Assembly (NCBI GenBank): GCA_000165345.1 | Contig: CM000431.1 | Span: 224,001-288,000 of the forward strand | DNA: 64,000 nucleotides | Reading direction: 5' to 3' | Shown here: positions 45,001 to 60,000 of the stretch, one piece after another | Numbering within the stretch: the first letter of the stretch is position 1 | Layout of the letters: every line of letters begins with the position of its first letter | Position numbers: made by a program

Positions 45001-48000
45001 TGGGGATTGCTGTCATAAATATCCTTGACTATTCCCAAAGCACTGCATTCAGAGACACTCTTGTCGTCTTCTAATTGGTTTTCTTCCATCTTTCCCTTAA
45101 TGCCGTCCAGACCTCGTGTTTCACTATTTAAGTTAGAGTTCAAATTCCATTTTTCACTTAAAAATGCTTCCTTAAATGATATATTCATTTGTTCCATCTT
45201 ATTTATCTTTTCCAAGAGTAAATTAAACCTTTGAATCTTTTCACTTAATTCTTCCAGGCTTTCTCTACTATTTTTGGGGCTTCCAACCTCACTTTTGATA
45301 TCTTGTACTTTTTCTTTTTTTGTTTGTATATTTTCCTCGGTTTCTTCTTTTTTATTTGTTTCTTGAAAATGATCTTTGTTATCTTTTTCTTCTTGTTCGT
45401 TTTTCTCATCTTCTAAGACCTCCACTAGTTTGGAAGTATGGTTGGATTGTGAGAAAGGTCCATTATTTACAATATAAAAACAATTATCTCCGAAACCTAA
45501 CAAATTTGGTTCAACTTGACTTTCGTAGGGGGAATAATCTCCAAAACTAAGTGATCTCACAAAATTCTCATAATAGTAAGAGTTACCATCAATTACGCAA
45601 TTGTCAATGTTCTGTTCCATGAGATTCAAAATATCTGTCCCAACATTATTCTTATACTTAATAACCAAAATTGAATCTTCTTCAATCTCAATTTCTCCTT
45701 GATTACCATTCAGAGAAACTTCTTCAAGCTCTGATTCACTTTCTAGAATCTGTTCATCTTGAATTTCACAATTATAGCATTCCTTCAAATCTACTTCTAT
45801 ACTGCGATTATTAATAGGCTCATAACCAAAGTCATTAAATTTTTGATCAAAACTACTCTCAGAGTATTTCTCTTCTTCGAAATTCCTTGTCTCATAGACA
45901 TTCACCTCAATTTCTTCACTCGTATCAGAATTCATGTTAATCTTTTTTTCACTTAAAAGCTCATCCCTAACAGTCTCAAGTTCAATATCTTTATCCCCTT
46001 TCTTGATCTCAACCTCAACTTCCATTTCCTGATATCTAGAGCTCTTGTTCTTACTGAGATCTACATGTGATACATCTCTTACTGTTACAGTATTATCACG
46101 CTTTGGTATAATTAAAATCTCATATGGTTCTAAGACTTCAAGTTCTCGTTGATCATTTGAATAACAAATCTCGGAATACATATTTTCAGCTTTTCCAAAT
46201 GTTTGAGGATCCGGTAATGTTGTTACTGGTCCATTCATAATTGTTGGCTGGTTTTGAATATGAGAGTTTCGCTGTATATTAAATCGATTCTGATTTAATT
46301 GTTGCTGCAACTGATATTGGTATTGAAGTTGTAAACTATATTCATATTGCTGTTGAGTAAACAGAAGTTGTTGTTGCTGTTGCTGAAGTTGGACTTGCTG
46401 ATATTTAATTACCTGTTCCAAGTAATTTTGATGATTTACAAATCCAACTCCATTGTTATAACCTACTGTTCCACTCATTTCGTTTCTGGGTACTAGTTGA
46501 CCTCTATTTCCACCTCCACTGTATGAGTATAATTGATCATTATTAAATGAATATCTCATTGTGAGTTGATTACGAAGTACATTCTGAGGCTTTATATTAT
46601 TATTATTATTATTATTCTTATTATTATTATTGTTAATATTATTAAGCTTAAACATAACCTAGCTTCAACCTCCACAATCTTTTCTACCTGTTTTTTTATC
46701 AAATGTCTATTCTTAAAATAACTTTGCTTTCCATACAACCTTTCAATTCTCTATGAATATCTTTGCGTTTTCAATTTTTTCCTCTTTAAATTTATATGAT
46801 CTCTAATCTTTTTTTTTCACATTTTTTATTAGTAACGGTACTTACAAATTGCATGAAGGCGCCACTTTTGGGCGCCAATATTTTGCTTTTATGTCATTTT
46901 AAAATAGACCAGACAATATACATTAGGAATGCCGCATGCAAAAGTAATTATTTATAAATAGTAATTGACAGAAAAAAAAAATTGCAAGGAAAAAAGGAAC
47001 ATAGACTTTGCTCAATTTATTCTAGATAATTTTTAAAAAGATCTATGATAAAGAATGATGAATTTCATCCATTTTAAAATGCAAAGAAAGTTGAATAATG
47101 ATATATACAATTAACATGCTAATAATAAAGGCAAGTTTCTCTTGGGATTTTCCGAGGGAAAAAGGGACTTTTATATGCATACATGCAAATTCGTCATTTT
47201 TTTTTTATTTTTAATTAAACAAAATGTGTGCAGAGATAAAACTGATTAAAAAAAATAAAAAAAAAGAAAACACAAAAAATTAAACAAGCTTAAAAGAAAT
47301 TCGATAGCATTTTTTGACTTTTCCTTCCTTTTGAACCTATAACGATCATGTTCTATTAAATCTCAAGTTTAATATTTAACTAACCCATTAGATAATAGGA
47401 TCCTATATTCCCTCACTGTTTTTTTTTAACTTTAAAGACTTTACTAATACACAATATTTAGATAGAACTTGTGCATTGCTCAAACTCCTTTTATTTAGCA
47501 ACAACAACAGAGCTTGCAAATACAGAGACAGTGAATAATTCCTGCAATAATAATAATTGCAACAACTACAATAGCAATGATAATACCAGCCTTCGCTCCA
47601 CTACTTAAAGAATCCCATGTATTCTTTGCTTGTTCTTGAGCATGATCGGCTAACTCTTTATAAAGATTATTCATATTATCTTGAACAATATCGCCAATTG
47701 AATTGCTTGAACCTTGATTGGTTCCCGAATTACTACTGCTACCAGCCTCTTGAAGTGCTCTATCATTTTTCTCCTGAATACAGTTTTCATTACAAGAGCT
47801 CTGATCTTTTGAATCAGCTAATTCAAGAGCAGTAGATCTAAATGGATGATAAGCATCTTGAGAATTAACTTGATAGTAACTGATAAAAAGCACCAACAAA
47901 GATAAGAAAAAACTTCGCTTCATTTTCTTAGTAGAATATGTAACTTAAATATCTTAACTAATGAATTTTCTTAGTTTTAGTGATAGACTTTTTTTTTTGT

Positions 48001-57000: not shown

Positions 57001-60000
57001 GACTAATTTAATGATTTACTATTTCCTGATTTACATGAGGCGCCTTGTCTCCAACATGCGCATTTCGGTACTCAAAGTAGATTAGTTGATAAACATTGGT
57101 AATTCAAAAAAAAAAAAAAAAAGATTTTATATTTGGAAATAATAGGGTTATAGCCAAATTTGTAATAGCTTGTATATTGAGTATGCTTATATTTATATTT
57201 GAGTGTTCCAGCTTCAACTTTTAAATAATTTAATAATTTTTAATAATTTTATGAAATATCAAATAAATCAAACATACGGCGCCAAATTTCGGCGCCATTG
57301 ATATTAATTGATTAAAACCGTAAACATAGAAAAGAAAATTATCGCAATTAAAATTACAAGAAAAGTAGGGAGAATATCGCAAAATTTAGTATATTAGGAG
57401 TGGATCTTAATATATTTTTGATTCTGTTTTAAGATTAGATCCTCACTTGTAGTAATGATTCTTTTTGCAAAACATTTTGAATGCAAATAGAATTTCATGC
57501 TTAAATTAATATAATACACAAGCCTCGTGAATAATTTTTAATGGTTCTTCTCTCATAACAGATACCTCTTTACTTCGTTCAGATTTATTAGATTGATTTA
57601 CAAAATAAGAAAAAAATATTAAACTTAAAAATTTATAATAGTATTGTATTACAAATGGGTAAATTAAGTAGAGATCGCAGGGATATTTACTATAGAAGGG
57701 CAAAACAAGAGGGATTTCGTGCAAGATCAGCATATAAACTAATCCAGATAGATGAAAAATATAATATATTTGATAAAGTGACAAGGGCAGTGGATTTATG
57801 TGCAGCTCCTGGAAGTTGGAGTCAGGTTTTGAGCACAAAGTTGCTCAATAATTCAGAGTATAATGAAGGTCAGCCCAAAGAAACTGATCAAATAGATTCA
57901 AATAATGGGGAGGCTCCGTTAATTGTAGCTGTTGATCTACAAGAAATGGCTCCAATTTATGGTGTTAATATTATTAAGGGAGATATCACTTCACAATTGA
58001 CTGTCAGCAGAATTTTGGAATATTTTCAAGGAAAAAAGGCAGATTTAGTATTATGCGATGGATCACCAGATGTGACTGGATTACATGATATTGATGAATA
58101 TATACAAAATCAGCTTTTAGTTTCTTCGCTTAGTATTACAAGCAAGATCATGCGGAAAGGTGGGACATTTGTTGCAAAAATATTTCGAGGGGAAAATATA
58201 TCAAGGATTTACCAACAAATGTTTTGTTACTTTGAACTAGTTGATTGTTGTAAGCCTGAAAGTTCTAGAAATTCAAGCCTTGAGGCTTTTATTGTATGTA
58301 GATATTTCAAATTTGATGACCAAGATTCAACTAATGTTAATTTTGAGATTCCAGATCCATTGACTGTTCCCTTTATTTCTTGTGGAGATCTTTCTGAATA
58401 TGATCCTGATAAAACATATGAGACAGAATATACCAGTTCACTTGAACCTATACAACCTCCAATAAATGCACCTTATCATTAGAAATTGTACATTTTTATT
58501 TCATTTAATCCAATTACACTCAAATGGGACCTTAACTTCCAATTGTTCTTCATCTTCAATTCCTATTTCTTTAATTTCCATCTCCATATTTACACAATCC
58601 CCATCAAAGTAAACCTTTATGTCTTCCAAATATTTTTCTGGTTTAGGATTCAAGTTTTTTGAAATATATGTTACTAATTTTTTAACAAGATCATTTCTAT
58701 ACAAAGCTACAACTAAAGTTTTAATTACTATTATATCTGATTCTTTTCTTTTATATACTTTAACATTTAATTTGATTACACTTTTTTCTCTTTCTTCATC
58801 CTCAATTGTGATAACTTGTGAAACTTGCTCATTTTTTGTTCCAACCTTTTTTTGGGTCTTTTCTATAGTTAAAACTGTGTCTTCTTTTCTGGATATTTTC
58901 TTTCTAACAGCTGGTCTAAACTCTTCATAGTCAGAATCTTCTTCTATATGATTGTTGTCATTACTACTAATTTTTTCTCTGGTTTCATTTTGTTGTGATT
59001 CCTTGTTAATACACACTTTTTTTGCTAATCTATTCCTTTTCTGAACTTTTCCTAACCTCCTGTTTACACTCTCTTGACTAAAAGCGATATCTTCTCCAAA
59101 CAAATCGTCATCTTCATTATTTTCTTCTATATTTCTCTCTTCCATGATGATTTTAACATTTATTTACATAAATGCCAATATTTAATCGCAATTAATCTAT
59201 TTTTTTACAAAGATAAATTCCAATTTTGATTAAAATAAACCACACACAGTATTACTATATTATTTGCTTCCCACAATTTTATCCACAATATATAAAAAAT
59301 TCACAAATAAACTCAGATCTACAAGTTCTGACATGTATGAAAAAAAATACAAGAGTTTTTAAGAGGAAGACTGTACGAGAATTAACACTTTCTCTTTATA
59401 TACTCCAGTAACTCAACTATTTAACAACCCTGTATTGTTTTTCTCCCCTTTAATAATTTCAAACAGGCACAATTATGACACGTGGCAGAAATTCCCGCCA
59501 ATCGATTTCATAATTATCAACTAATTGCTAATAAAAATGAAAATTTGCATGCGTAAGATGGCGCTAAAATATAATAATATTAAAATAGTAATGTACAAAA
59601 AATAAATCAAAAAAGAAAAAAAAAAAAAATCTACATTTTCAGTCTAGCATGTCTTATACTTTGAGAATTCGATAAGGTCTGTGTCTGGTAGTGTTGAATT
59701 ATAAGGATATAGCGCAACTTTTAAAGTTTCAAGATCACTGGAAATTAAGTGATCAACGGAAGGTAATTTACAACTATGTTTATGAATGATTTCTGAAGGA
59801 GGCATCAAGCAAAACTCTTTGATATCTTTCCATTGACAAATCTTTCTCATCCTGGGACTTTTGTGTTTGAAAAACTCCTCCCAATCTTTTTCAATACTGA
59901 ATTCTTTTTTAACCATATCAGAAATGACATTTCCACTATAACCTGTTACCATTCTTAGTAATGCTTCTTCTACTTTAGAATCTGGAATATGGTCAATATT

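Follow-up and report, generated by a model that had tools for sequence, protein, structure and literature searches.

E2F-like and AP2-type sequence motifs in the intergenic DNA of a region of Cryptosporidium parvum chromosome 3

The short GC-rich words found in the AT-rich spacers between these C. parvum genes are very probably transcription factor binding sites, of an E2F-like and an AP2_1 type. The window, meaning the whole 64,000 nucleotide stretch that was analysed, is from chromosome 3; its encoded proteins are identical to those of GCA_015245375.1, CP044420.1, which upholds the taxonomic placement made in the original prediction. The evidence seen here is enrichment, confinement of the E2F-like cores to spacers containing a gene 5' end, positional conservation, and conserved spacing. 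The literature supplies AP2 binding in vitro, the existence of E2F and DP genes, and the occurrence of E2F motifs in accessible chromatin. E2F/DP is the putative binding protein, and its cooperative binding at the dyads is likewise putative. The words are the E2F-like and AP2-type promoter motifs published for C. parvum between 2003 and 2025 and are already known. Since they have been published for this parasite, the finding is correct but ordinary.

Across the whole window there are 15 copies of GGCGCC, 10 of GGCGGG, and 12 of TGCATGCA, against 0.28, 0.59, and 0.39 expected from dinucleotide shuffles; the GC-rich words are genuine and greatly exceed chance. Non-ORF DNA, 26% of the window, holds 14 of the 15 GGCGCC and all 12 TGCATGCA. 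The comparison on which the original prediction was staked, with dinucleotide-shuffled intergenic DNA, was made using 1000 shuffles of the intergenic segments alone and showed overwhelming enrichment. The observed and expected numbers are 14 and 0.23 for GGCGCC, 7 and 0.48 for GGCGGG/CCCGCC, and 12 and 0.16 for TGCATGCA, and none of the 1000 shuffles matched these counts.

The motif families described for C. parvum include E2F (5'-TGGCGCCA-3', [C/G]GCGC[G/C], or GGCGGG) and AP2_1 (5'-TGCATGCA-3') (PMC3734150; PMC4117751; PMC12246861 Table 3), with E2F TGGCGCCA and AP2_1 being the most over-represented upstream motifs (PMC3734150). When the k-mers of the intergenic DNA were scanned without bias, GCATGCA and GGCGCCA came out on top, followed by CACACA, GGCGGGAA, and GTGGGG, which correspond to the remaining published families. 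The intergenic sites satisfy either the E2F-like consensus [A/T][C/G]GCGC[G/C][A/T] or its GGCGGG variant, and the 12 exact TGCATGCA copies satisfy the AP2_1 palindrome [T/C]GCATGC[A/G]; GCATGC has 19 intergenic copies. This match, together with the k-mer ranking, supports the predicted identity of the words as Cryptosporidium E2F-like and AP2-type elements. Thirteen of the 14 intergenic GGCGCC have a T at -1 or an A at +1, and four of the seven intergenic GGCGGG/CCCGCC sites are TTCCCGCC / GGCGGGAA.

Gene 5' and 3' ends were taken from the annotated gene models. Of the 14 spacers with a gene 5' end, 12 carry one or more strict cores, in agreement with the suggestion that nearly every 5' spacer carries a motif. 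Each of the 21 intergenic E2F-like cores is in a spacer bounded by one or two gene 5' ends, and none are in the seven convergent spacers of the window. Only four further cores are found in coding DNA, across 47 kb. The distance from an E2F-like core to the nearest ATG is 126-912 bp, with a median of 336. The TGCATGCA copies are split evenly, with six in divergent 5'/5' spacers and six in convergent 3'/3' spacers. The label of promoter element thus does not suit all of the TGCATGCA copies.

The coordinates originally listed could all be read back, and most are exact, although several are degenerate or half-site matches. Exact GGCGCC are at 35359, 40661, 42554, 46858, 46871, 48055, 48525, 49298, 49933, 52503, 53518, 57039, 57278, and 57291, the sole coding copy being at 32241. 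Exact GGCGGG/CCCGCC are at 35303, 37412, 52484, 53534, 59494, 34300, and 54757, the last two having been missed. Six TGCATGCA had been listed (35397, 48086, 49310, 49321, 61237, and 61499) and six had not (31798, 31812, 39090, 39094, 56208, and 56220). The inexact entries are TGGCGC (29434 and 59558), GCATGCA (29447 and 35254), CCGCC (35719), TTTCCGCC (37395), and GGCGG (61200).

Two dyads of the form GGCGCC-N7-GGCGCC are present, which had been described as identical and as belonging to two unrelated divergent promoters. Both exist and have the cores and 13-bp step in common, but their 7-nt spacer sequences differ and their flanks are unrelated to each other. Only the second is in a divergent promoter. 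The first (46858..46876, GGCGCCACTTTTGGGCGCC), preceded by TTGCATGAA, is between two minus-strand genes, 203/216 bp upstream of the ATG of a 986-aa gene (43695..46655, minus) and downstream of a 142-aa gene. At this locus C. felis has GGCGCC-N7-GGCGCC at 196/209 bp, C. bovis has TGAAGGCGCC, and C. muris has GCATGAAGGCGGG; the block GCATGAAGGCG(C/G)(C/G) upstream of the 986-aa gene is common to C. parvum and these three species. The second (57278..57296, GGCGCCAAATTTCGGCGCC) separates a 136-aa gene (minus) from an FtsJ gene (plus), 385 and 377 bp from their respective ATGs. Here C. meleagridis retains the 13-bp step with an altered spacer sequence, chipmunk genotype I has AGCGCC and GGCGCC, and C. 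felis has GGCGCC and CCCGCC at a 14-bp step. The dyad step outlasts the spacer sequence in C. meleagridis (GGCGCCAAAAAGAGGCGCC) and in C. felis (13-bp step). An N7 dyad would amount to two full 12-bp E2F-type sites adjoining with 1 bp between them. Such an arrangement may let two heterodimers bind adjacently, giving higher occupancy or cooperativity; cooperative binding is suggested by this geometry at just two loci.

Other E2F-like sites are also paired. The GGCGCC-N10-GGCGGG pair at 53518..53539, in the divergent spacer between a 192-aa gene and ARF, has both cores unchanged in C. meleagridis and chipmunk genotype I, and C. felis has the same 16-bp step. CCCGCC(AAT)-N13-GGCGCC (52484..52508), 365/384 bp upstream of a SWIB gene, is kept in C. 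meleagridis and is found at a 20-bp step in C. felis. Several sites stand beside TGCATGCA. The 2-kb divergent spacer between 194-aa and 182-aa genes contains CCCGCC (35303), a G-box with GGCGCC (35352-35364), and TGCATGCA (35397) within 35303..35404. GGCGCC (48055) and TGCATGCA (48086) at 48055..48093 are 132-163 bp upstream of the 142-aa signal-peptide gene; C. felis keeps both and C. bovis keeps GGCGCC. A GGCGCC with two TGCATGCA (49310, 49321) forms a composite at 49298..49328 midway along a 2.3-kb spacer devoid of genes, where the nearest ATG is about 900 bp away. In this spacer blastn identifies only two islands shared by C. parvum and C. felis, and both contain GGCGCC (49933 and 48055). 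The former, TTTGGCGCC (49933..49938), precedes the gene for ribosomal protein L35 (Pfam L29) by 277 bp and has counterparts in C. felis (tttGGCGCCttga at 244 bp) and C. bovis (tttGGCGCGttga at 229 bp). At 48525..48530, GGCGCCAAT follows ACATGCTA, 602 bp from the ATG of the 142-aa gene; the C. felis counterpart is GCATGC then ttttGGCGCC at a similar offset.

The remaining sites are also 5' of genes. TGGCGCCA (42554..42559) precedes the RNase P p29 gene by 168 bp, and the orthologous spacers in C. felis and C. bovis also contain GGCGCC. GGCGCCAAT at 40661..40666 is in the divergent spacer that separates RRP40 from a 536-aa gene, whose ATG is 126 bp away. A cluster of TTTCCGCCAAT, GGGCGGG, and GGGCGG (37395..37430) occupies the divergent spacer of L7Ae/NHP2 and Ulp1. 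Three sites are on the minus strand: GGCGGG at 34300..34305, 336 bp upstream of the 194-aa gene; TTTCCCGCC at 54757..54762, 537 bp upstream of a flavoprotein gene and 198 bp upstream of tRNA-Glu, kept in C. meleagridis, chipmunk genotype I, and C. felis; and TCCCGCCAAT at 59494..59499, 349 bp upstream of a Rad60-SLD gene, unchanged in C. meleagridis and chipmunk genotype I. The GGCGCC at 57039..57044, 146 bp upstream of the 136-aa gene, is the only one lacking the T/A flank and is also the one that is not conserved, with AGCGCC in C. meleagridis and GCCGTC in chipmunk genotype I. This copy is probably weak or non-functional. The gene that each site would serve is judged from distance alone.

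The E2F-like cores keep their positions in C. meleagridis, chipmunk genotype I, C. felis, C. bovis, and, in part, C. muris. When C. parvum is compared with C. meleagridis and chipmunk genotype I, all three agree at 88% of motif bases, as against 64% of other spacer bases (Fisher p = 6e-7). For 15 sites, positional counterparts were found for 8 in C. felis, 5 in C. bovis, and 2 in C. muris, where shuffles gave 1.2, 0.18, and 0.03; these counts exceed all or nearly all shuffles. Both the identity and the counterparts point to purifying selection on the sites.

The GGCGCC / GGCGGG family, with its usual T or A flank (TGGCGCC or GGCGCCA), is the E2F-like element. It would most probably be bound by the winged-helix E2F/DP heterodimers of the parasite, each subunit contacting half of a CGCG-type core, and may mark the nucleosome-free part of a promoter, a few hundred bp 5' of one or two start codons. 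C. parvum has two E2F and two DP genes (PMC3734150, PMC12246861), none of them within the window; its E2F/DP genes are cgd1_1560, cgd6_1430, cgd7_3650, and cgd8_1850. In sporozoites, E2F motifs are present in the ATAC-seq peaks at gene 5' ends, over half of which are classed as bidirectional promoters (bioRxiv 10.1101/2025.01.17.633476). TGCATGCA is the AP2_1 element, a target in vitro of several C. parvum ApiAP2 domains. On protein-binding microarrays cgd2_3490 binds [T/C]GCATGC[A/G] (PMC3734150), TGCAT is bound by four AP2 domains (PMC4117751), and the in vitro binders of 5'-TGCATGCA-3' are cgd2_3490, cgd1_3520, cgd8_3230, and cgd5_4250 (PMC3734150, PMC4117751), as well as the Plasmodium orthologue PF14_0633.

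The recurrence of identical hexamers and octamers is all that would favour deriving the words from a dispersed repeat, or from base composition, over independent selection of the sites. This has next to no probability and can be regarded as refuted. Dinucleotide-preserving shuffles yield less than one copy, the flanks of the two dyads are unrelated, and no dispersed repeat family was found covering the motif sites. Between species the sites remain as conserved islands where the rest of the spacer has diverged, at loci that span 23% to 45% GC. It is distinctly improbable, though less so, that the GGCGCC-type element is a genuine, selected cis-element bound by some other factor, such as a zinc-finger, Myb, or NF-Y-type CCAAT protein, and merely resembles the metazoan and plant E2F consensus. 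CGCCAAT, giving a CCAAT-box overlap, occurs at six sites (37398, 40661, 46871, 48525, 52484, and 59494) and its count is 7 against 0.63 expected. Direct GGCGCC binding by Cryptosporidium E2F/DP has not been reported (PMC3734150, PMC12246861), and the literature search found no ChIP or CUT&RUN study of these proteins in Cryptosporidium. ChIP-seq is described as still needed (PMC3734150), and most components as lacking functional validation (PMC12246861). However, the core [C/G]GCGC[G/C] with its T/A flanks conforms to the canonical E2F-DP site, as does the variant TTTCCCGCC / GGCGGGAA, and none of the tested AP2 domains bind the motif (PMC3734150, PMC4117751). Cryptosporidium is also the only apicomplexan genus to retain E2F/DP (PMC4117751), and is the one in which the motif is over-represented.

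Because half of its copies are in 3'/3' spacers, TGCATGCA has a weaker claim to a promoter role than the E2F-like element has. Divergent copies include one at 61237..61244, between a 278-aa gene and CDPK1, retained in C. meleagridis and with one mismatch in chipmunk genotype I, and one at 61499..61506, 475 bp upstream of the CDPK1 ATG, retained in the former and lost from the latter. The convergent copies are a pair with a 14-bp step between a hydrolase and a 351-aa membrane protein gene (31798..31819), two overlapping copies in TGCATGCATGCA between Ulp1 and RRP40 (39090..39101), and a pair with a 12-bp step between the flavoprotein and 136-aa genes (56208..56227). These may instead be 3'-end elements, acting as RNA (UGCAUGCA in overlapping 3' UTRs) or as DNA termination or boundary marks, although this seems doubtful. 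Convergent spacers make up 8.7% of the intergenic DNA and hold 6 of the 12 copies (3 of 8 clusters), all three clusters being close pairs 54-150 nt past stop codons. In the ATAC-seq study, sporozoite open chromatin yielded no AP2 motifs, promoter peaks included (bioRxiv 10.1101/2025.01.17.633476). The six genes flanking the pairs, probed with one 16-mer each, had no lncRNA match among the catalogue entries listed. Yet the bias towards convergent spacers is statistically marginal (about p = 0.03), and the paired pattern is absent from three further C. parvum convergent spacers just outside the window and from other species. The 56208/56220 pair is kept in C. meleagridis, has decayed in chipmunk genotype I to one mismatch per copy, and is missing from the compared spacers of C. 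felis, C. bovis, and C. muris. Published lncRNA promoters carry BGCATGCAH and antisense transcripts mostly begin at gene 3' ends, thus a role of the pairs as antisense promoters is the simpler reading. A reading in which the pairs are such 3'-end elements, RNA-level or termination/boundary, is similarly unlikely, as is one in which E2F-type sites paired at a fixed step make up a distinct, geometry-constrained promoter class in need of two adjacent E2F/DP dimers.

Paired or tandem E2F sites occur in animal and viral promoters, including adenovirus E2 early, DHFR, and E2F1. These share with the window two E2F-type sites at a short fixed distance in one promoter. The Cryptosporidium dyads differ in being direct repeats of a palindromic GGCGCC core with a 13-bp step, and their cooperative binding is only putative. 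With the ApiAP2 AP2_1 system the window shares the palindromic octamer, its intergenic over-representation, and its frequent co-occurrence with E2F-like sites (48055/48086, 49298-49328, 35359/35397). It differs in that half of the copies are tandem pairs in convergent 3'/3' spacers; turnover between species is also faster for the TGCATGCA copies than for the E2F-like sites. The closest known system is the E2F-like upstream motif of C. parvum itself (Bankier 2003, Mullapudi 2007, Oberstaller 2013, and Xiao 2025, the last by ATAC-seq). Two details were not found stated there, the close pairs with 13-20 bp steps kept across species and the positional conservation out to C. felis, C. bovis, and C. 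muris. The organism, the consensus, the non-coding and upstream over-representation, the divergent (bidirectional) promoters, and the placement upstream of a ribosomal protein gene (here RPL35) are all the same, and the window differs from the published motif in nothing of kind.

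With a GC content of about 30%, the window has 15 copies of GGCGCC where 0.28 would be expected, 10 of GGCGGG/CCCGCC (0.59 expected) and 12 of the AP2_1 word TGCATGCA (0.39 expected). All but one of the 15 GGCGCC, and all 12 TGCATGCA, lie outside ORFs, in 26% of the window. The original prediction proposed a comparison with dinucleotide-shuffled intergenic DNA, and this was run by shuffling only the intergenic segments, 1000 times, with their dinucleotide counts preserved. None of the 1000 reached the observed counts, which were 14 for GGCGCC (shuffle mean 0.23), 7 for GGCGGG/CCCGCC (0.48) and 12 for TGCATGCA (0.16). 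In an unbiased scan of every intergenic word of 6, 7 or 8 nt, GCATGCA and GGCGCCA came out on top, followed by poly(A), CACACA, GGCGGGAA and GTGGGG. The abundance of the E2F-like and AP2_1 words that had been noticed from the sequence is thus borne out, and every listed coordinate could be read back, although the sites at 29434, 35719, 37395, 59558 and 61200 are half-sites or degenerate matches. AAT follows six E2F-like cores (37398, 40661, 46871, 48525, 52484 and 59494), making CGCCAAT and an overlap with a CCAAT box; the intergenic DNA has 7 copies of this heptamer where 0.63 would be expected.

Proteins encoded in the window have residue-for-residue matches on Cryptosporidium parvum chromosome 3 (GCA_015245375.1, CP044420.1, at about 250-300 kb), and the gene map used here is that record's set of gene calls. 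A giant Thr-rich ORF (121..29157) is followed by approximately 21 compact genes with few introns. The motifs are absent from the first 29 kb because this ORF fills that stretch. It is over 9,600 aa long, with a repeat unit of about 700 residues and long poly-Thr tracts, and is annotated in the public record as a protein of about 11,700 aa. Rfam and tRNA scans of the whole window identified a tRNA-Glu (54955..55026) and no other RNA gene.

Previous work found the E2F motif (5'-TGGCGCCA-3', with cores [C/G]GCGC[G/C] and GGCGGG), the G-box and AP2_1 (GCATGCA) to be the most over-represented upstream motifs, E2F and AP2_1 having been seen as early as 2003 in chromosome 6 non-coding sequence (Oberstaller et al. 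2013, PMC3734150). Of 200 co-expression clusters, 161 have the E2F motif upstream, and TGCAT is bound by four AP2 domains (Oberstaller et al. 2014, PMC4117751). The motifs are tabulated in a 2025 review (PMC12246861). ATAC-seq peaks at 5' ends carry E2F motifs, more than half of these being annotated bidirectional promoters, and no AP2 motifs were found in sporozoite open chromatin (2025 preprint, bioRxiv 10.1101/2025.01.17.633476). A search of the literature found no report of direct binding of the Cryptosporidium E2F/DP to the motif; in C. parvum these factors are two E2F (cgd1_1560, cgd6_1430) and two DP (cgd7_3650, cgd8_1850). The reading of the window's words as E2F-like and AP2-type elements of the kind described for Cryptosporidium is essentially right, since they are enriched and match both the consensus and the published C. 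parvum motifs.

On the annotated gene models, all 21 intergenic E2F-like cores are in spacers with at least one gene 5' end, and there are none in the seven convergent (3'/3') spacers of the window. At least one strict core is present in 12 of the 14 spacers containing a gene 5' end, and cores are 126 to 912 bp (median 336) from the nearest ATG. The gene encoding 278 aa (59644..60480) has a frame that is open upstream of its annotated ATG on the minus strand (60481-60579). This extension has its match in the C. felis orthologue, which is longer at 320 aa, and the C. meleagridis call is 326 aa; the C. parvum model may therefore lack part of the 5' end of the gene.

In agreement with the published consensus, 13 of 14 GGCGCC sites have T at -1 or A at +1. 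The sole exception, at 57039 near the 136-aa gene, is not conserved. Both of the predicted GGCGCC-N7-GGCGCC dyads, where none would be expected, were found (46858-46876 and 57278-57296). They were thought to be in two divergent promoters; this is true of the dyad at 57278, which is near the centre of a divergent spacer, with one ATG at 385 bp and the other at 377 bp, whereas the one at 46858 is between two minus-strand genes, downstream of the one encoding 142 aa and 203 bp upstream of the one encoding 986 aa. The two have only their cores and step in common, the N7 spacers and flanks being unrelated. From its sequence, each dyad would consist of two full 12-bp E2F-type sites 1 bp apart. Copies of a dispersed repeat or mobile element were considered as a source of the dyads and rejected, as their flanking sequences gave no alignment and they are not part of any repeat family.

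Syntenic loci were compared from C. felis, C. bovis, C. muris, C. meleagridis, chipmunk genotype I and C. xiaoi. When seven spacers were aligned between C. parvum, C. meleagridis and chipmunk genotype I, 76 of 86 motif bases (88%) were identical in all three, against 3132 of 4914 other spacer bases (64%; Fisher p = 6e-7). A site was counted as a positional counterpart if its offset from the same ATG differed by no more than 75 bp. On this basis, counterparts were found for 8 of 15 C. parvum E2F-like sites in C. felis (shuffle mean 1.2), 5 in C. bovis (0.18) and 2 in C. muris (0.03). The E2F-like sites are clearly under purifying selection across the genus; turnover between species is faster for copies of TGCATGCA.

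The spacing of paired sites is also retained. The dyad of the 986-aa gene has the same 13-bp step in C. felis, and a GCATGAAGGCG(C/G)(C/G) block upstream of this gene is common to C. parvum, C. felis, C. bovis and C. muris. In C. meleagridis the dyad upstream of FtsJ (57278) keeps its 13-bp step while its spacer changes from AAATTTC to AAAAAGA. Other close pairs have steps of 16 bp in C. parvum and 15-17 bp in its relatives, or of 19 bp and 19-20 bp. Conservation ahead of the 986-aa gene extends beyond the dyad to a larger module (46820-46876), in which AGTA(CC)..GGTACT is followed by TTGCATGAA, and the latter directly abuts the first GGCGCC. CATG is found no more than 3 nt 5' of GGCGCC at two more sites (48517 and 57030). 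ARF has, approximately 170 bp before its ATG, the sequence AGCGCCTGTGGGGC (53795-53815), which contains both a G-box (G[T/C]GGGG) and a GCGCC half-site; it is conserved in C. parvum, C. felis and C. bovis, and is present with one change in C. muris (AGCGCTTGTGGGGC).

Restriction to promoter-containing spacers is complete for the E2F-like family only. Half of the TGCATGCA copies (6 of 12), overlooked in the original prediction, are in convergent spacers, as one close pair in each of three of the seven: 31798/31812 (31798-31819), 39090/39094 (39090-39101) and 56208/56220 (56208-56227). These pairs are 54 to 150 nt past stop codons. Convergent spacers, which are 8.7% of the intergenic DNA, hold 3 of the 8 TGCATGCA clusters, a marginal excess over chance. 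The pair at 56208/56220 is kept only in C. meleagridis. Apart from the C. meleagridis orthologue, no other 3' pair was found when more convergent spacers were examined, in C. parvum (just beyond the window), C. meleagridis, chipmunk genotype I, C. xiaoi, C. felis, C. bovis and C. muris. The obvious explanation for the 3' pairs would be promoters of antisense lncRNAs, both motifs having been reported in lncRNA promoters. No support for this was found, however, as 16-mer probes from six flanking genes (one per gene) and the 2.3-kb gene-free spacer at 47924-50209 matched none of the lncRNA sequences listed in the FASTA of bioRxiv 10.1101/2020.09.19.304907, a weak test in which a primer control did match. 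Two convergent spacers also have identical copies of the 13-mer GCATACACCTTGT (43581-43593 and 50663-50675), which is absent from the loci of the other Cryptosporidium species and is probably shared by chance.

The spacer at 47924..50209, with no called gene, is 2.3 kb long where the genome averages about 0.5 kb, and contains four GGCGCC and three TGCATGCA, with two clusters 600-900 bp from any ATG. Just two islands within it align between C. parvum and C. felis by blastn, and both contain GGCGCC. A missed protein-coding gene was considered here and is not supported: the extra genes called in C. felis and C. muris lack similarity to C. parvum, with no tblastn match in the window, and six-frame pieces of the C. 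parvum spacer match no other species. A transcript lacking annotation is possible in this spacer.

Around 15 genes, including CDPK1, ARF, RPL35 and SWIB, gain concrete conserved candidate sites. The finding is otherwise already known; all that it adds is the step kept between paired E2F-type sites and the unexpected 3' location of some TGCATGCA pairs, for both of which genome-wide confirmation is needed. In essence, these are the known E2F-like and AP2_1 cis-elements of C. parvum rather than a new kind of element, and the window is typical of the genome as a whole, with nearly every promoter marked by these words.
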